Below, piece by piece: positions 1 through 8,523 of a stretch of 8,523 bases of DNA. The DNA comes from Spizellomyces punctatus DAOM BR117 (taxonomy: Eukaryota). The notes beneath the pieces are model-generated. The model had not been told where the DNA came from. It ran no database searches and saw only the letters and a program-made list of their open reading frames with translations. Positions within the stretch are counted from its first letter, which is position 1. Every line of letters begins with the position of its first letter. The position numbers and the translations under genes were made by a program. Location: assembly GCA_000182565.2 (NCBI GenBank), contig KQ257474.1. The stretch is one strand, 5' to 3'.

Positions 1-2529
1 CCGTCCGTAAATGTAAATCGGCTTGTCTTGTGCTCCTAACCACGTAGCAGCATCACTAGCATACCCTAAAAAACCAGAACCATCCAGACCCAGCCAAGAC
101 GATTTTGTACCGTCAAAACTATTTGAAATAAAGACAGACGAGCCTCCTGCTACAGAGGCGGTCGTTTGAACTCTGCTTCCTGTAATGACTTTCCCTGAGA
201 TATTGCCGCCAAATGTAACATTATTTGAAGTTAGATTAGTTATCTGGCTTCCGACCCAAGGTTTGATAACATCATTGTCATAATCTCTTAACATCGAGAG
301 ATTGATTGCTTGCTGAGGGTATTCGTATTTGATGCCTCGATAACATGAAGGCGTATCAAACAAGAGACGAGTACAACCTCCTATTGGATCAGAAGCAATT
401 GCGACATTGCTCCCGGGTTCAAGTGGTGGCATGAAGGTAACAGGGTCTATTGGTTCGTAAACGGGGTTTCCATCGCCATCGAGTATAGGTTGTCCTTCCG
501 CATCTCGTTGAACCTTACGTTTGCGTGACCCTCCGAAAATCATTCCCCAAGGGAACGTTGAGACGATTGGGAGGATGGAGTTTACAGCCATAGGGACTGT
601 CAGTGGTGGAGATACGATCGCAGGAAATGGAATGGTAGTCAGCGGTGTAGCCCCAGACAATACGACCACATTCCCACCAGGAACATCAGTTTTCAACACT
701 TCGCCCGTGTCACTTTGCTCCGTATTGTCTGTATCCCTTTGCTTCGATAACGGCGTGGGGTCAATCAAGGTGAAGTTAAACAATGGGTATGAGCCAGTAA
801 TTATCAAATTTGGCGAATTAGATACCAACTGAGGAGGAATCATATTATACTGAATCGTATTCCCTACAACTACGACACTTCCATACGAATTTGTCGAGCC
901 AATGTAGTTGCCTTTCAGCGTATCACCCACTCGAAGAACGGTATCACTTCCTGTAAGTGAACATGAAATCAAGTCGCCGCTGACTTGTACACCATTTATA
1001 CCTCGGAGATTAGTAGATAGAATGGCACCGTTCTTCTGGAGGCCTATCCCGGCTGCTATATTAGAACTTAGAACACCATTATTGAGGGTTAAATCTGGAG
1101 ACTGGGCTGTTAACGAGAGTCTAAAATCGTTGCCCACCCGTGTTACTCCTTGGGAGGCTGTGAAGGTATCCCGTATGGTACCCCTGTTGACCATAGCCAA
1201 ACCGCTGTTAGCATCAACTTTTAGATCGAGTTGAAGGTCATTCTGTACTCTCTCGAGACCATTGCTGCAAGTCAGTACGTCTTTAATGGTATCTGCTTTG
1301 ACCATTTGAAGAAAACTGCCAGCCTCACACTTAAGGGAAAGTTGAATATCGTTTGTAGTCCCTGGGCGAACGGTCACTCCATTAAAATCTTGAAAAATGT
1401 AGCCACCGGTTAAACGGTTCCCAAGAATCCGTACTGTTTGGTTGTCAACGAGAACGCCTATCTCCCTACGTCCTACCGATTCGGGTCCAACGGCGACCGC
1501 GCCTGTTAATGATCCTTGATAAAAGTTTGAAAGATAGTCTTTTGTGACTGCATAACTTCCTCCACCTATTCCAGGCAGCGTTCCCATTATTTTCACATTA
1601 GGAACACGCAGTTCTTGCAATGTTGTCGAAAAGGTAAGATTTGAGGAGGCAGAGTATCCATACTGAAGATTTCCAAATAACACCTGCTCATAACCTGGGG
1701 ATTTCAGCGACAATCTAGAACCCACTTGAGAAAAAGTGGAACTGTCTACCATCAATCTAATCGCTGTCGTGTCAACCTCTCCCAAAAAATCAGTCATATC
1801 GGTCAAACTATTGAATCCAAAGTCTAGCCATGATGATCCGATGTCTAACAGCGTATCAGCACCGCTGGATGTCTTTATTGCGCCGAATGCTTTGAACAGT
1901 TGACTAGTATTGGTTTCTAATTCGTCTTCATTGTTCACCTTTAGACTTTTGTGGAGTTTGATTCCAAGGCCGCTCTGGTCACGAAACAATGGTTTCTTGA
2001 GCGTTTCTGGAGGAGGGAAGTTTACAGATAGACCATTCTCATTAATGGATAATGTCTCATCTGCCTGTAAACCAACCGTCCGTGATTCGGCATCCCTGTA
2101 GAGTGGAAATTCATAACTGTCCGGAATGACTTTTAGTTTTTCTTCCTCTACAGTTAAACATGAATCATCAATCTGAAGTTGAATACCATGATCCTCTTTT
2201 GAGTAGACAAGAGGTGGACGCGCGTTTACGTCGACTGTGGTCAACTGATTACTCTCGTCAATCTCAAGTCTCTTGTTGTCGTAAAGTAATTCGATACTTA
2301 CAACGCCGTTTTCGTTACTGGAAGATAAGCATCCAGAGGTGGTTTCAACAGAGTTGACTTCTAACTCGCCATTTTCGTTTGATAAATGTTTAAATTCTCC
2401 AACAGCGAACCCCTTTATCTTTGCAGCATCATCGAATCCAGTCATCTCCCCCGTAACATACGGTGAGAGGAGATTTGTATTATCTAAATTACGTAACCCG
2501 GAAGCGTTCCTACTGTTAATACCAGACAT
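1..2529 (-). CDS. Large virion fiber/spike-like protein, C-terminus beyond the window edge (at least 843 aa)
   Basis: Manual translation: ATG at 2529 (in-frame TAG upstream at 2541-2539), with no stop down to position 1. Begins MSGINSRNASGLRNLDNT and ends ...WLGAQDKPIYIYGR. Contains beta-spiral-like repeats (RPPLVYSKEDHGIQLQIDD, EFPLYRDAESRTVGLQADE, KPLFRDQSGLGIKLHK; ASQGVTRVGNDFRL, AGIGLQKNGAILST, GINGVQVSGDLISC). The ORF is near certain; the function is inferred. Confidence 0.75.
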   Translation of the reverse strand, partial: MSGINSRNASGLRNLDNTNLLSPYVTGEMTGFDDAAKIKGFAVGEFKHLSNENGELEVNSVETTSGCLSSSNENGVVSIELLYDNKRLEIDESNQLTTVDVNARPPLVYSKEDHGIQLQIDDSCLTVEEEKLKVIPDSYEFPLYRDAESRTVGLQADETLSINENGLSVNFPPPETLKKPLFRDQSGLGIKLHKSLKVNNEDELETNTSQLFKAFGAIKTSSGADTLLDIGSSWLDFGFNSLTDMTDFLGEVDTTAIRLMVDSSTFSQVGSRLSLKSPGYEQVLFGNLQYGYSASSNLTFSTTLQELRVPNVKIMGTLPGIGGGSYAVTKDYLSNFYQGSLTGAVAVGPESVGRREIGVLVDNQTVRILGNRLTGGYIFQDFNGVTVRPGTTNDIQLSLKCEAGSFLQMVKADTIKDVLTCSNGLERVQNDLQLDLKVDANSGLAMVNRGTIRDTFTASQGVTRVGNDFRLSLTAQSPDLTLNNGVLSSNIAAGIGLQKNGAILSTNLRGINGVQVSGDLISCSLTGSDTVLRVGDTLKGNYIGSTNSYGSVVVVGNTIQYNMIPPQLVSNSPNLIITGSYPLFNFTLIDPTPLSKQRDTDNTEQSDTGEVLKTDVPGGNVVVLSGATPLTTIPFPAIVSPPLTVPMAVNSILPIVSTFPWGMIFGGSRKRKVQRDAEGQPILDGDGNPVYEPIDPVTFMPPLEPGSNVAIASDPIGGCTRLLFDTPSCYRGIKYEYPQQAINLSMLRDYDNDVIKPWVGSQITNLTSNNVTFGGNISGKVITGSRVQTTASVAGGSSVFISNSFDGTKSSWLGLDGSGFLGYASDAATWLGAQDKPIYIYGR

Positions 2530-2647: not shown

Positions 2648-4132
2648 TTACATCATTCGTTGTTTCTTCTTAGGAGGAAGGATTATTTCTTCACCTTTTC
2701 TTCTTCTCGTCCTAACGGTCGGTTCTGTCACTTGAACTTGTTGTACCGGTTGAGCAGGGACAACAAACTCGGCATCTCTCCACCCACCACGAAGTTTCGC
2801 GAGCGGACGAATCTCACTACCAAGGTCTGCTGTCAAGGGAACCAGTGTAGGTGGGTTAAGTGCCGTCGGTGCTGCTGGAGCAACATCCACTTTTCTCCTT
2901 CGATTAGCACGCACATTCCTTTCAACTTCTGCAGGGGACATTAATGTGATTTCCTCAACATGGTCTTCTTGTTCAGGTATGGAATCATCAATCTTCCGTC
3001 TCTTAACTGTTTGCTTCTCTTCAGGTTGCTTGTACTGTCTTCGCTTGGTGCCATGAGGAGCACTTCCGGCGAAAATCACATCTGGGGGACGTGGAGGAGC
3101 AACAGGTGGTGGGGTTGCTGGTGGAGTTACTGGCTCTACAACATCATGCTCCGCTCCTCCTGTTTTTTGCTTCTTTTTATTCAATCGAGGAATCGGCGGG
3201 GGTGCATTTGCTTTCCTTTTAGAACCTGCTAATATGGTTGCTTCCTTACCTTTGAAGTGAAATGGTGTTCTCGCAGGTACCGAGACAAACTGATCATTGA
3301 TGGAGTTTCTCTCTAAAACATCCGCTACACCAGATGGATCATGGCGGTCATTCAGAAGTACTGTATCATGTGGAATTGGTACGCTACGAGGCATTGTTTC
3401 GACGGAGGCATCAATTTGAGGAGATTCCACATGTATCTGTTGAGTCGACCCAGGAAATCCTCCTGGAATAGGTGGAATGTAACTATCAGCCATTAGATGC
3501 GCTGGCAGTGAAACTGCAATGCCAGTCGCATGATTGACACGGTCATTTCCAACTGCATCTCTTCGTATCTCTGTTTCTCGAGTCAGGATGACTGGCTCTA
3601 CAGGAACACTGTTTACATTACGTGGTTGAGCTGGTATCTCATTTCCATTAGGTGGTGCTTGAAACATTAAACCTGTTTGGGAAGTCACTGATGCTGGATA
3701 GGAATACACATGTCCAGTTTCATCAGGAATCGGTAATCCTGAAAGGGAATTTTGCGTTCCAATGGTCAATGCATTCCCTTGTCGACTTGGAGTAATCGAA
3801 TCAAGATACTTCTGTTTCTTATGATAATCTTCTTCTGCTTTCACGTACTCAAGACCATCCTTATAAGCCTTCGTGGTGTATTGCGCTGCTGACAATTTCA
3901 AAACATCAGAAGATGATAATCTTGGTTCATATTTAGGTTCAACGTAATTGGTCTTTGTCGCTAAGTCTTTTTGATGGATCAACCTGTTCCACGAATACAC
4001 TACTTGTGGTCGCCCGAGGTCATCGACCTTTGAATAATCTAGAGCGACCCCAACTTGTCTCTTTTGCAAATTAGGAATCGGTGGCGAAATAGCATATGTA
4101 TCACTCAAGTAATTGGCTCGGTAATATGCCAT
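2648..4132 (-). CDS. 494-aa Pro-rich, largely disordered protein with multiple NLS-like motifs (candidate core/cement protein)
   Basis: Long ORF. C-terminal half has KRKANAPPPIPRLNKKKQK, KRRQYKQPEEKQTVKRRK, RRRKV and RRRKGEEIILPPKKKQR, plus a PPATPPPVAPPRPP tract. No family recognised. Confidence 0.75.
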   Translation of the reverse strand: MAYYRANYLSDTYAISPPIPNLQKRQVGVALDYSKVDDLGRPQVVYSWNRLIHQKDLATKTNYVEPKYEPRLSSSDVLKLSAAQYTTKAYKDGLEYVKAEEDYHKKQKYLDSITPSRQGNALTIGTQNSLSGLPIPDETGHVYSYPASVTSQTGLMFQAPPNGNEIPAQPRNVNSVPVEPVILTRETEIRRDAVGNDRVNHATGIAVSLPAHLMADSYIPPIPGGFPGSTQQIHVESPQIDASVETMPRSVPIPHDTVLLNDRHDPSGVADVLERNSINDQFVSVPARTPFHFKGKEATILAGSKRKANAPPPIPRLNKKKQKTGGAEHDVVEPVTPPATPPPVAPPRPPDVIFAGSAPHGTKRRQYKQPEEKQTVKRRKIDDSIPEQEDHVEEITLMSPAEVERNVRANRRRKVDVAPAAPTALNPPTLVPLTADLGSEIRPLAKLRGGWRDAEFVVPAQPVQQVQVTEPTVRTRRRKGEEIILPPKKKQRMM

Positions 4133-4732: not shown

Positions 4733-5986
4733 TCAAACCACAGTCACAACAGCACCAATGGAAAGTGTGACATTCTCGTGGTAGGTTGAGACCATGCGCA
4801 CCTTTTGCGTAGGTGCCGTTGCATGAGTTGTATGCACACGAAGAATGCCATCAGTACCTGTAAAACTCAAAGCATTCGCCGAGCCTTCATCCTTCGAAGC
4901 AAAACTCCACCCAAAGGAAAAGGCTTTTGAATCATAGTCGGCGAACGACAGATCTATCTCCCCCAGTTGGTCAAAGGTGTTATTTGATAACTGTGTGACC
5001 AGTAACGTTTGATTGTCACTTGGGCTGTGAGTAAACCCTTGCGTTCCACTTGGAATGGTAAGATTTGCCCCCAGTTGAATTCGCCACTCGCGAAGCCCTT
5101 GTGAAGAATACATTAGCGCCTTATCTTTCGTCTGGTCATTGAGAACATCATCGTCCACAAATGACATTTCGATCCCTTGAAGTGACCTTACACCACTCAT
5201 ATGAAGCAAAAATGTATTCCGGTTTCCGCCACTACATGCGTTTTCCGTTTGGGTTGAGCGCACATAGTCATAGAATATTGACTTACCATCTGATATAGCG
5301 CGAGTCGCGTTCACAACGGTTGTCGGTGGCGGTGTGATGAAAGGCAAGAGACATCTAATGGAACTGACTCTGATTTCGCCAATACCAGCACTTGTAAAGA
5401 CGGTGGAAGGATCCGCTAAAGTGATGATGATCTCTAAGGCCTGATTAGGAAGCGCCCAAACAGGGAAGAACTGGTCATTTGTCGGATGAAAGAAACCCAC
5501 AAAAGGGTGATGGTTGATGGAGATAGTACTCGATGTTGCAAAGATATTGGTGTTTCCATATCCGGAAAGTTGGCTCAACAATTTCTTACTACCGGCGGAT
5601 AGATTGCGGTACGTTTGTACTAGATAAAGAGGATAGTTTGGAATGTTGACAACTGTTTCACCCCCTGCTTTGATGGTCAATGATTGAATAATGGATTCCA
5701 AGCCAAGATACGTGTTTTTAACACCTGTACCAGGAGTTATCAAGTTTCCTGCATTATCGTATGCAGAAACATCCATGGAGAGAATTAGTTTTTGCAGAAC
5801 GAAACTCACCGAATTAGAGTCACAAGTTATCTTAATTGGGGTCAGGTTACGACTTTTTGTCGTATACGTGCTTTGACCTATTGGAGAATAGATTGACATC
5901 CCCTCCCCGCGGGGGTCTGAGTACGAACGACTAAACGTGTTACTGGAAAATAACCAATTACGAGGTACAGCAACTTCTTCCGACAT
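4733..5986 (-). CDS. Putative double-jelly-roll major capsid protein (PLV-type), 417 aa
   Basis: Size and beta-rich pattern fit; segment GLESIIQSLTIKAGGETVVNIPNY resembles the conserved 'sli..l.i..gg..ie.i.nY' motif of PLV MCPs; WRIQLGANLTIP resembles the 'y...ig....P' motif of the second jelly roll; lies next to penton and ATPase genes. Confidence 0.75.
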   Translation of the reverse strand: MSEEVAVPRNWLFSSNTFSRSYSDPRGEGMSIYSPIGQSTYTTKSRNLTPIKITCDSNSVSFVLQKLILSMDVSAYDNAGNLITPGTGVKNTYLGLESIIQSLTIKAGGETVVNIPNYPLYLVQTYRNLSAGSKKLLSQLSGYGNTNIFATSSTISINHHPFVGFFHPTNDQFFPVWALPNQALEIIITLADPSTVFTSAGIGEIRVSSIRCLLPFITPPPTTVVNATRAISDGKSIFYDYVRSTQTENACSGGNRNTFLLHMSGVRSLQGIEMSFVDDDVLNDQTKDKALMYSSQGLREWRIQLGANLTIPSGTQGFTHSPSDNQTLLVTQLSNNTFDQLGEIDLSFADYDSKAFSFGWSFASKDEGSANALSFTGTDGILRVHTTHATAPTQKVRMVSTYHENVTLSIGAVVTVV

Positions 5987-6027: not shown

Positions 6028-6558
6028 TCAGCCAAAAATACCACCATAGTTGTCCTCCTCAACATTGTCCTCCTCAAAGAACGGTGATCTAGAGTCAAAG
6101 AATGGTTCATCATCACCAAATTTCAAAATTACGCTCTTTTTTTTAGATGGACGTATTGCTGCTGGCTGCGCCTTTGCTGCTGGTTTGGATCTCTTGCTCC
6201 TAGTTGGTGTTGCCTTCTTTCCTCGCTTTGTGTTTCGTCGTTCTTCCCTCGCCAACCGCTTCTGTTCCTTCTCCTCTTCAAGGATGCGTTTGGCCTCATC
6301 GATCCTCCTTTGTTTATCCTGCTCCTTCCGTTCCTTCTCGCGTTTTGCTTGCATTAGGCGCAATTGTTCAGCCCTCGCTTTCTGCGCCTTCTCCAATGCA
6401 GCCCGTTGCTTGTCCGTCATCGGGCGTTTCACCTTTTGCTTTGGAGGCTGTTCTGGTATAATTTCTGCTTTTTGAACAGGTGCTTGTTCAGCGGGTGGTT
6501 CTACATTATCTTGTGGAACGGCACTCGATTCTTGATGATTTTGATTTTGCTCTTCCAT
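6028..6558 (-). CDS. 176-aa highly charged coiled-coil protein
   Basis: KRPMTDKQRAALEKAQKARAEQ followed by an E/K/R-rich helix, a basic KRGKK...RSKRSK tract and an acidic tail; co-oriented between penton and MCP. Confidence 0.75.
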   Translation of the reverse strand: MEEQNQNHQESSAVPQDNVEPPAEQAPVQKAEIIPEQPPKQKVKRPMTDKQRAALEKAQKARAEQLRLMQAKREKERKEQDKQRRIDEAKRILEEEKEQKRLAREERRNTKRGKKATPTRSKRSKPAAKAQPAAIRPSKKKSVILKFGDDEPFFDSRSPFFEEDNVEEDNYGGIFG

Positions 6559-6604: not shown

Positions 6605-7324
6605 TTAGACATCCGCAACATCATCTGTAAATGCAAACCGAACGGTTAACGGACTGTTGAGTGCAACTTCCAAACCGGTCATTGAGTCAATAAGATAGAA
6701 TTCGATTTTGGAGATAGTGTCATCAACAGGGAGCCATTCACCTCCATCGTTAGTCCATGTGACTACATCGCCAAAGGAATCAGGGACAACCGCAGCAATT
6801 ACGGATTGGGCGGAATCATTGAAGTCACTGAGGAAACGGCTTCCTTGGACTTGGATGTTACTCGTGACAAGCATTGGATACGACCCGGACAAATTGACAG
6901 CATTCTTCAGTGTGATAGTCTTGTAATATCCCGTTTCACTCCATCTTGACATTCCTGTTAGAAGATATGATGTCGTTCCTCTCGACGCAGCAAGAACCTT
7001 GAAGTTCTTGCTACCAGATGTGGAAAGTGTCAATCTCCTCGTAACAGAGTCGTATGTGGCATTGTAGGCTTGCGTCCCGGCTGAACTCAATGCTTGAGCA
7101 ACGGCATTCGGAAAATTAGCGATGCTGTAATTACCATTAGGTATTTTCGCAGATAAGATGGTTGGATCGCCTTCTTCAACAAAATTAATCGTGTTATTAG
7201 AATCGTTGACCAGATCCCAATCTTGAAGGAAAGAAACCGAGAGAACCTTCATCATTTCCATCCTCCGAGGAGGTATTGAGAATGATCGAGATTTTAAGGA
7301 GCAGTATGTCACTTCGTTAATCAT
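6605..7324 (-). CDS. Putative minor capsid protein (penton, single jelly roll), 239 aa
   Basis: Motifs NNTINF, KIPNGNYSIANFPNAVAQAL, TYDSVTRRLTL and C-terminal ISKIEFYLIDSMTGLEVALNSPLTVRF match the pattern of Polinton/PLV/virophage pentons (ip.GnY...l; i..i...l.D..g..v.ln). Confidence 0.75.
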   Translation of the reverse strand: MINEVTYCSLKSRSFSIPPRRMEMMKVLSVSFLQDWDLVNDSNNTINFVEEGDPTILSAKIPNGNYSIANFPNAVAQALSSAGTQAYNATYDSVTRRLTLSTSGSKNFKVLAASRGTTSYLLTGMSRWSETGYYKTITLKNAVNLSGSYPMLVTSNIQVQGSRFLSDFNDSAQSVIAAVVPDSFGDVVTWTNDGGEWLPVDDTISKIEFYLIDSMTGLEVALNSPLTVRFAFTDDVADV

Positions 7325-7365: not shown

Positions 7366-8070
7366 ATGTCCTATAAACCACGCCCAATCTTTCCCGTAGG
7401 GAAAAAGAAGAGAGATCCTCGTGTTCCACGTGACCTGGCATCACTGCCTCTATGTACAACTCTTGTCGCTCCGAGGAAAAGTGGTAAAAGTGCATTAGTC
7501 TGCGGTCTGATTGAGGATGTCTATGCTAAATTACACGATCGAGTCATTATCATGTCCGACACAGTTGAATACGATGCTTCTGTGAAGGTACTGTCCGAAA
7601 CCACAAAACATAAAAATATCTACTTTACAGACGAGGTTTCCAATGCATCCATCGCTAAAATTGTAGAAGAACAGAAGAAAACGCCTGAGAAGTCACTTCT
7701 ATTATTCATTGACGACGCTGGTGATTCTGCGCAAAGTAAAGAACTCAACAAGGAGTTATCGAAACTCTATACAAAAGGGAGGCATTTCAATATAGGAAAT
7801 ATTGTAGCCATCCAGAGTGTAACCGGACAACTTTCACGTAAAATGAAGAACTGCACCACCGAGTGGGTGGTGTTTAAAAACAATGCAGAAGACATGAAAC
7901 TTTTAGCAAAGTTACTTGCTTCCGCCTACAAAGATGATAAAGAAGTTCTAACATTTCTCACCGAGTGCACCAAAGAACCTTATTCGTTTGCCTACATCAA
8001 TAGAGATGCTAGTGATGCTAAAGGAATGTATCGTTACTGTGACTCCAGCGGGTTTCATGATTACTTTTAG
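7366..8070 (+). CDS. A32-like (FtsK/HerA superfamily) genome-packaging ATPase, 234 aa
   Basis: Walker A APRKSGKS (7468-7491), Walker B LLLFIDD, the A32-family KGRHFNI...AIQ arginine-finger/sensor motif, and C-terminal EPYSFAYIN. Confidence 0.93.
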   Translation: MSYKPRPIFPVGKKKRDPRVPRDLASLPLCTTLVAPRKSGKSALVCGLIEDVYAKLHDRVIIMSDTVEYDASVKVLSETTKHKNIYFTDEVSNASIAKIVEEQKKTPEKSLLLFIDDAGDSAQSKELNKELSKLYTKGRHFNIGNIVAIQSVTGQLSRKMKNCTTEWVVFKNNAEDMKLLAKLLASAYKDDKEVLTFLTECTKEPYSFAYINRDASDAKGMYRYCDSSGFHDYF

Positions 8071-8175
8071 TTGCTGGCATTGGCACTCCGTACCGGGTGC
8101 TCGAAGAGCACCGTTAACGCACGTGGAGCGTGCTTTACCGGCATGTTTTTAAAGCTGATCTTATCGATAAGAGAG

Positions 8176-8523
8176 ATGGATGAAAGAAAGCCTAACTGGA
8201 AAGATATAACACCAGAGGATGAGCGGCGCTTGAAGCAGCTCTACTACAGAGAACATGCTTACATGGGCAGAGATCGTTTGTACGCGCTTTACAAAGCAAA
8301 GTATCCAGAGAGCAATATGTCTCAACGGACACTGTTATCATGGCTAAAAGACCAACCAATTTGGCAATGTTGGTCTCGACCATTGACCAACAAGGGAGGG
8401 ATTCGTCCCATATTGGCAAGTAGTCCAGGGCAACTTCAACTTGACATTTTTTCCATGATAAGTGTACCGTATTTAGGATATAAGTATGTCATAGTTGCAG
8501 TCGATATTTTAACTAAATGTGAA
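8176..8523 (+). CDS. Polinton-type retroviral-like (rve/DDE) integrase, N-terminal 116 aa, truncated by the window edge
   Basis: Manual translation: MDERKPNWKDITPEDERRLKQLYYREHAYMGRDRLYALYKAKYPESNMSQRTLLSWLKDQPIWQCWSRPLTNKGGIRPILASSPGQLQLDIFSMISVPYLGYKYVIVAVDILTKCE. Shows the Polinton integrase N-terminus (L..lYY...G..kLy...wL..Q) and the start of the rve core (QLD, first catalytic Asp; GYKYVIVAVDILTK). Confidence 0.9.
   Translation, partial: MDERKPNWKDITPEDERRLKQLYYREHAYMGRDRLYALYKAKYPESNMSQRTLLSWLKDQPIWQCWSRPLTNKGGIRPILASSPGQLQLDIFSMISVPYLGYKYVIVAVDILTKCE

Follow-up and report, generated by a model that had tools for sequence, protein, structure and literature searches.

A probable adenovirus-type triple-beta-spiral fibre encoded by a polinton-like (MELD) virus integrated in the genome of the chytrid Spizellomyces punctatus

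Introduction

Adenovirus and phage fibres attach to the virion through their N termini and bind the host through their C termini, the tail of the adenovirus fibre carrying a penton-base-binding motif of the FNPVYPY type. The subject here is a large open reading frame (ORF) in an 8,523-nucleotide (nt) stretch of the genome of the chytrid fungus Spizellomyces punctatus DAOM BR117 (contig KQ257474.1 of assembly GCA_000182565.2; the whole of this stretch is termed the window). The product of this ORF is very probably a virion fibre, belonging to an integrated polinton-like (MELD) virus and having a triple-beta-spiral shaft of the adenovirus/reovirus type.

Adenovirus-like vertex fibres in chytrid MELD viruses are already in print, a passage of PMC8502044 (Starrett et al. 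2021) stating that six Powellomyces MELD viruses carry sequences resembling adenovirus vertex fibre proteins. Passages of PMC12220804 describe large modular fibres of polinton-like viruses (PLVs) with a C-terminal Peptidase_S74, PF06536 being among their domains in some cases, and according to a passage of 10.1101/2022.07.28.501842 a fibre-like protein of PgVV-14T was detected in virions by proteomics. An earlier note on the present DNA, made without database searches, had taken the fibre to be a part rarely annotated in PLVs; in the light of the passages from PMC8502044 and PMC12220804, that view is out of date. For Spizellomyces punctatus itself, one such integrated element is reported in a passage of PMC7805220.

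The fibre ORF of the window (2529..1, minus strand) has 843 codons, all of them open, and continues past the window start. What is added here to the published picture is the number of the shaft units and their borders, a controlled homotrimer model, a conserved N terminus, and an unexplained central hydrophobic module.

Results

Translation of the minus strand places proline-leucine (P-L) anchors at residues 106, 142 and 180 of the fibre ORF, within R104-P105-P106-L107 (nt 2209-2220), F141-P142-L143 (nt 2101-2109) and K179-P180-L181 (nt 1987-1995), their leucines being 36 and 38 residues apart. The three hydrophobic strand stretches quoted in the earlier note correspond to residues 115-134, 151-169 and 187-206, and the tetrapeptide NENG occurs three times (residues 51, 72 and 163) against 0.017 occurrences expected from composition in 843 amino acids (aa); the third NENG alone falls within the three P-L units. 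The anchor spacing and coordinates, the strand stretches and the NENG count given in that note are all correct by translation.

The proposal, made in the same place, that these units are internal repeats is upheld. Adjacent units are significantly alike, with z scores of 5.1 (residues 96-136 vs 137-174) and 4.9 (137-174 vs 175-210), the observed score being reached by none of 500 shuffles in either case. By contrast, comparison of the first with the third unit (96-136 vs 175-210; z 1.1), and of any pair that includes either of the two stretches upstream (z -0.6 to 2.0), does not by itself reach significance, which counts against repeats beyond chance. No clean period emerged from hydrophobic autocorrelation, whose top lags were 44, 53 and 19, all at or below 0.24. 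A regular expression for a strand-turn-strand unit had 15 matches in the sequence vs 4.7 +/- 2.1 in 2000 shuffles, none of which reached 15, though this pattern was composed after the sequence had been seen and is hence biased.

The shaft pattern stands out far better when 28 relatives are aligned than in the single sequence. The repeating family consensus is P-L ... G-x-L-x-L ... D-x-x-L ... G-x-L-S-V (the final element also being given as G-x-L-x-V), and N51, G54, N59 and P106 are invariant across the 28 relatives, among which the number of shaft units differs. The shaft of the window's protein (residues 47-206; 1912..2391, minus strand) comprises nine strand-turn-strand units of 14-21 aa each, and each 36-38-aa P-L unit equals two of them; residues 47-206 contain tandem strand-turn-strand repeats of the 15-20-aa kind, with alternating hydrophobic residues and glycine or proline turns.

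Sequence comparisons link these repeats to adenovirus fibres. The Pfam family PF06536 (avian adenovirus fibre, N-terminal) matches residues 99-134 with 24.3 bits in the whole protein and 34.2 bits (E 2.4e-8) in the N-terminal 220 aa, relative to a cut-off (gathering score) of 22.7, the alignment covering 34 of 56 profile positions. The same family is listed in 9 of 24 scanned relatives, in 7 of them at or above the cut-off, while PF00608 (Adeno_shaft) is listed in one of the 24 (28.3 bits, below its cut-off of 30), as is the triple beta spiral family Reo_sigmaC_M. A profile of the 28 relatives matches two PDB chains at E ≤ 1; the first, 9fah_A ('Fiber'; E 8.7e-5), aligns repeat for repeat over the shaft (profile positions 115-223), and the second is the fibre chain 6itx_A (E 0.24). 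The fibre ORF had no match in PHROGs.

A search of representatives returned 58 relatives at E ≤ 1e-3, of which 19 had E ≤ 1e-30; those that are full-length have 1132-2644 aa. One relative is deposited as the 'fiber' of Powellomyces chytrid fungus MELD virus 3 (DAC81653.1; BLASTP E 3e-54, 28% identity over 593 columns, from residue 1 onward in both proteins). Uncharacterised proteins of Spizellomyces punctatus are 75-88% identical to the fibre ORF, and further relatives, annotated as hypothetical, come from two other chytrids, Fimicolochytrium jonesii and Thoreauomyces humboldtii. The distal part of full-length relatives consists of repeat modules, lectin-like domains and sometimes a self-cleaving S74 chaperone, with Peptidase_S74 present in 6 and F5/8 type C in 7 of the 24 scanned relatives.

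Prediction of a homotrimer, a check suggested in the earlier note, gave a confident model. With the family alignment as input, residues 1-215 were modelled with interaction prediction scores from aligned errors (ipSAE) of 0.81, 0.81 and 0.82, the best of three controls reaching 0.00. The partner predicted local distance difference test (pLDDT) score is 91, at least 97% of contacts are common to the runs, and 748-763 contacts extend across residues 10-211. Those with the lowest error run in cyclic order from residue i to about i+10..16 of the next chain, a predicted arrangement that fits an intertwined spiral.

In the AlphaFold2 (AF2) monomer model of residues 1-215 (mean pLDDT 75.5, and 85-91 over residues 60-130) there are nine hairpins, at residues 50-55, 68-81, 88-98, 107-118, 125-134, 143-154, 160-169, 181-190 and 196-206 of the minus-strand translation, and all three NENG motifs lie on hairpin turns. 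All six Foldseek matches to this model in the PDB at E ≤ 0.001 are beta-spiral fibres, i.e. five reovirus sigma1 chains and AfpX13 (E 7.9e-5 to 7.1e-4, probability 1.00, structural-alignment identity 17-21%), with template modelling (TM) scores of only 0.16-0.27. Of the 50 BFVD matches at E ≤ 0.001, 45 carry the name of an adenovirus fibre, with that of turkey adenovirus 4 ranking first (E 8.1e-8); TM-scores are 0.15-0.34.

The N-terminal 45 residues (2395..2529, minus strand) are the best-conserved stretch of the 28-sequence alignment, with the family consensus MSGxNSRTSSGLRxLxxTNLxSPxVSG.... They are coil in the monomer model (pLDDT 48-67), and residues 10-49 lie within the predicted trimer interface. 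Because the N terminus is the most conserved part and the far ends of the family are modular, it may be, by analogy with adenovirus and phage fibres, that the protein docks on the penton N-terminally and binds the host C-terminally; the N-terminal 45 residues are most likely the candidate capsid- or penton-docking end. The string NPVY occurs once in the protein, at residue 685, mid-protein, where it is loosely conserved; a likeness of this region ('RKRK ... GNPVYEP') to the adenovirus fibre tail was considered and set aside, since relatives keep just a loose G-x-P-x-Y/L.

The fibre paralogues of Spizellomyces punctatus have two unrelated N-terminal ends, MSGINSR... and MPLPNSIQ..., before similar shaft repeats, as seen in a comparison of P0003, P0004, P0005 and P0020 with P0001 and P0007. 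If the N terminus docks on the penton, the two N-terminal types should pair with two penton types.

Beyond the shaft, a node at residues 208-340 (1510..1908, minus strand) has a conserved family consensus and, at low confidence in the full-length AF2 model (pLDDT 39-55), predicted helices at 224-237, 242-249 and 330-338. It is followed by a second hairpin run (residues 345-561; 847-1497, minus strand), modelled in the full-length AF2 prediction as seven E4-turn-E4 hairpins with two-residue turns (G/N-D/G) at pLDDT 31-60; this run is possibly fibrous as well, with repeats of another type. The full-length monomer itself was rejected for fold work beyond the N terminus on account of its mean pLDDT of 47.

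After an acidic linker comes a hydrophobic Pro/Gly/Ala-rich segment (residues 617-667; 529..681, minus strand), which holds the highest Kyte-Doolittle 19-residue (KD19) windows of the protein (1.67 at residue 621). Among 21 relatives, the equivalent segment reaches a KD19 value of at least 1.33 in 20 and of at least 1.6 in 11. A transmembrane helix was not adopted for this segment in the window's protein, where it is proline-rich and modelled as coil. A basic stretch (RKRK) and then a Cys-containing block, conserved across relatives, occupy residues 668-766 (232..528, minus strand), with strands at 709-724 and a helix at 744-755 in the full-length AF2 model; these residues are the best-scoring stretch for several relatives, e.g. 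P0008 at query 566-763.

The whole central module (residues 617-766; 232-681, minus strand) recurs family-wide as an acidic linker, a hydrophobic Gly/Ala/Pro-rich segment of 40-60 aa, a basic cluster and a Cys-containing block, the hydrophobic segment being variable in sequence and a loose D-x-x-G-x-P motif being present. A full-text search of the literature returned no paper on such a module in PLV fibres, nor is one mentioned in the passages of the papers cited here. It may anchor the protein in a membrane, act on membranes or provide a site of cleavage.

The 8.5 kb of the window form, by their ORFs, a single capsid module, to which the fibre ORF belongs: a penton homologue, a candidate major capsid protein (MCP) and an A32 ATPase all lie within 5 kb, each as an intact ORF. 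The penton (minor capsid protein) is a 239-aa ORF (6605..7324, minus strand), 57-68% identical to the deposited 'penton' of Powellomyces chytrid fungus MELD viruses 2 and 5 and 78-90% identical to hypothetical proteins of Spizellomyces species; it matches no Pfam family even at E ≤ 10. Its designation as penton in the earlier note is confirmed by this homology to the deposited MELD proteins. The ATPase, of the A32 genome-packaging type (234 aa; 7366..8070, plus strand), matches PF04665 (Pox_A32) with E 8.7e-8 and 32.4 bits (cut-off 22.8).

The MCP candidate (417 aa; 4733..5986, minus strand) is a lead only, of low recognition: its Atlas feature matches to viral clusters are at 0.97-0.98, a minority of the cluster members having DJR-like_dom, Capsid_N or Capsid_NCLDV, and there is no Pfam match even at E ≤ 10. 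A protein of 1243 aa from another genome, P0034, resembles this candidate at its N terminus and also matches the fibre at query 142-635; it is most likely a fused gene model over neighbouring genes, and shows linkage of MCP and fibre in that genome too.

Three further ORFs complete the window. Adjoining the fibre gene is a Pro-rich basic ORF of 494 aa (2648-4132, minus strand) with several K/R clusters near its C terminus and no family match in Pfam (including at E ≤ 10) or PHROGs. Between penton and capsid candidate lies a highly charged ORF of 176 aa (6028-6558, minus strand), extreme in its K, E, R, Q and P content and with an AT skew of -0.37 over the stretch; it has no family match, Pfam at E ≤ 10 giving noise only, and may be a DNA-binding core or scaffold protein. 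The ORF after the ATPase gene (8071-8523, plus strand) continues past the window end; its end resembles, by eye, the start of a retroviral-type integrase core, with no Pfam match even at E ≤ 10. In its gene layout the window corresponds to a polinton-like (MELD) virus that has integrated into a chytrid genome.

Discussion

What the computations show is a set of repeats, a resemblance in sequence and fold to the shafts of adenovirus fibres, a homotrimer modelled with confidence, and homology to a chytrid-virus protein annotated as a fibre. Because of the PF06536 match, the profile match to 9fah_A, the homotrimer model, the fold matches and the homology to the deposited MELD 'fiber', the ORF is very probably that of a trimeric adenovirus-type fibre, and the earlier note's proposal of a trimeric beta-spiral shaft is upheld on these same grounds. 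Its proposal that the fibre is anchored on the penton is a weaker part of that interpretation.

Several observations weigh against this assignment. A comparison with an adenovirus shaft profile, also proposed in the earlier note, succeeded with PF06536 and failed with PF00608, which does not match the window's fibre protein even at E ≤ 10. A phmmer search of PDB sequences with the N-terminal 220 aa gave no matches at E ≤ 10, an adenovirus knob domain was found neither in the window's 843 aa nor in the 24 scanned relatives (full-length ones included), and a regular expression for the adenovirus-type tail motif had no match at the N terminus, where a different conserved sequence stands. The protein is known here from its first 843 codons alone, and the low mean pLDDT of its full-length monomer model has been noted above.

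The structural evidence likewise has its limits. Of 30 proteins solved as pairs of one chain, 20 reached the mark used for the trimer scores, as did 1 of 23 solved as single chains; this calibration is based on two copies, so that three copies with a custom alignment fall outside it, and the modelling tool also cautions that a high score could stem from memorised solved complexes of like kind. The trimer evidence consists of scores and contacts, and the beta-spiral topology of the trimer is a reading of those contacts. Among solved adenovirus shafts, 1qiu, 1v1i and 1v1h were matched by Foldseek only at E values of 0.6-1.2, and the TM-scores are low, as is expected for an extended single chain.

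How the likeness to adenovirus fibres arose is a separate matter. It is possible, though less likely than not, that the likeness reflects convergence or exchange of a short repeat module and not common descent of the whole fibre gene. The similarity is limited to short, low-information repeats (34 of 56 Pfam positions), neither a knob domain nor an adenovirus-type tail motif was found, the same fold is seen in reovirus sigma1 and bacterial AfpX13 fibres, and the C-terminal modules are of phage type (S74, lectins). The Pfam and profile matches are, however, significant and recur in many relatives, and the adjoining capsid module is that of a virus lineage which, according to a passage of 10.64898/2026.06.19.733378, includes adenoviruses.

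That the window's copy is in decay, an endogenous relic from which no working fibre is made, seems unlikely. Related Spizellomyces punctatus copies do look damaged, e.g. P0006 has an unrelated tail and P0004 an internal deletion together with a duplicated stretch; against this, every codon of the fibre ORF seen here is open, and the penton, candidate MCP and ATPase ORFs are intact. The gene may still be functional.

The central module raises the question of where the fibre is held. A bipartite vertex protein, in which this module anchors in an internal virion membrane, is membrane-active during entry, or marks cleavage into two fibres, is an improbable arrangement. Improbable too is that the module (residues ~617-766) holds the fibre in the virion, in an internal membrane or at the vertex, with the shaft not penton-proximal and both arms directed outward, or the chain cut into two fibres. 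The family-wide conservation of the module, which for several relatives is the best-scoring stretch, would suit such a role, as would the facts that in 11 of 21 relatives the conserved block is preceded by a hydrophobic window (KD19 at least 1.6), often with K/R clusters after it, and that P0043, P0055, P0060 and P0061 begin just before the module. These short proteins may, however, be fragments or have miscalled starts; the hydrophobic segment of the window's protein is proline-rich and modelled as coil at pLDDT 27-31, with no helix; and the combination of a most-conserved N-terminal 45 residues with modular C-terminal ends is the usual pattern of N-terminal attachment, as in phage and adenovirus fibres.

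A monomeric beta-hairpin solenoid of the choline-binding or CROP-repeat kind, acting as an adhesin, is barely credible, since although such structures are among the Foldseek matches and a monomer model alone cannot separate solenoid from beta-spiral, their matches have probabilities of 0.02-0.1 and E values of ~0.3 or more (vs probability 1.00 and E ≤ 7e-4 for beta-spiral fibres), the homotrimer model is confident with controls at 0.00, and the S74 chaperone present in relatives is typical of fibres that are trimers.

With the N-terminally attached trimeric fibre as the preferred reading, the following arrangement can be envisaged. The three chains would wind round each other, residues 47-206 forming about nine triple-beta-spiral repeats and so a thin, rigid shaft. 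Each repeat would run from a strand through a tight turn, in many cases N-G or D-G, into a return strand and on to a loop that often opens with P-L, the NENG motifs sitting on repeat turns. After the shaft there would come in order the partly helical node, the second hairpin run, the acidic linker, the hydrophobic segment, the basic cluster and the Cys-containing block (to ~766). The first 45 residues would attach the fibre, at the vertices of the capsid, to the pentameric penton encoded by the 239-aa ORF, and the long, variable far end, visible in full-length relatives alone, may bind the host surface by means of lectin-like modules and carry self-cleaving chaperone modules; a receptor-binding role for the protein would be in keeping with this.

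Host-attachment fibre appears a sound label for a large and uncharacterised chytrid gene family, whose named relatives are called only uncharacterised or hypothetical. The results give model-based support for a vertex fibre shaft of adenovirus type in small DNA viruses of fungi, and fit the idea of a capsid-vertex design common to the polinton, PLV and adenovirus lineage.

With regard to known systems, reovirus sigma1 (3s6x, 3s6y, 6gap) and the AfpX13 mini-fibre (8uur) are, among solved structures, those whose fold best matches the shaft model; they belong to unrelated virus and bacterial systems, and a sequence-level relation to the window's protein was not found. The shaft of the adenovirus fibre has 15-20-aa strand-turn-strand repeats with P-L starts and glycine turns, as in the window's protein, which matches the PF06536 shaft profile and is predicted to form a homotrimer. 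The window's protein is far longer, however, and phage-type modules follow in its relatives. Since no knob was found, PF00608 is not matched and the tail motif is not at the N terminus, the protein is outside the strict adenovirus fibre family.

The modular PLV fibres (passages of PMC12220804; Ltf of PgVV-14T/Gezel-14T, in passages of 10.1101/2022.07.28.501842) have a C-terminal Peptidase_S74 and in some cases PF06536; the relatives of the window's protein carry S74 and lectin domains. The PLV fibres differ in their hosts, which in those passages are cryptophytes and haptophytes, whereas the host here is a chytrid fungus, and the conserved N terminus and central hydrophobic module of the present family go unmentioned in the passages concerned. 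The closest counterpart is the MELD virus 3 'fiber' (DAC81653.1), which shares the conserved N terminus, the shaft repeats and the central hydrophobic module. It has extra shaft units inserted and a distal F5/8 type C domain, the window's protein being seen to codon 843 only, and it comes from an assembled virus genome whereas the window's fibre lies in a genome contig. The window's protein is thus a member of the chytrid MELD-virus/PLV fibre family, a family already published.

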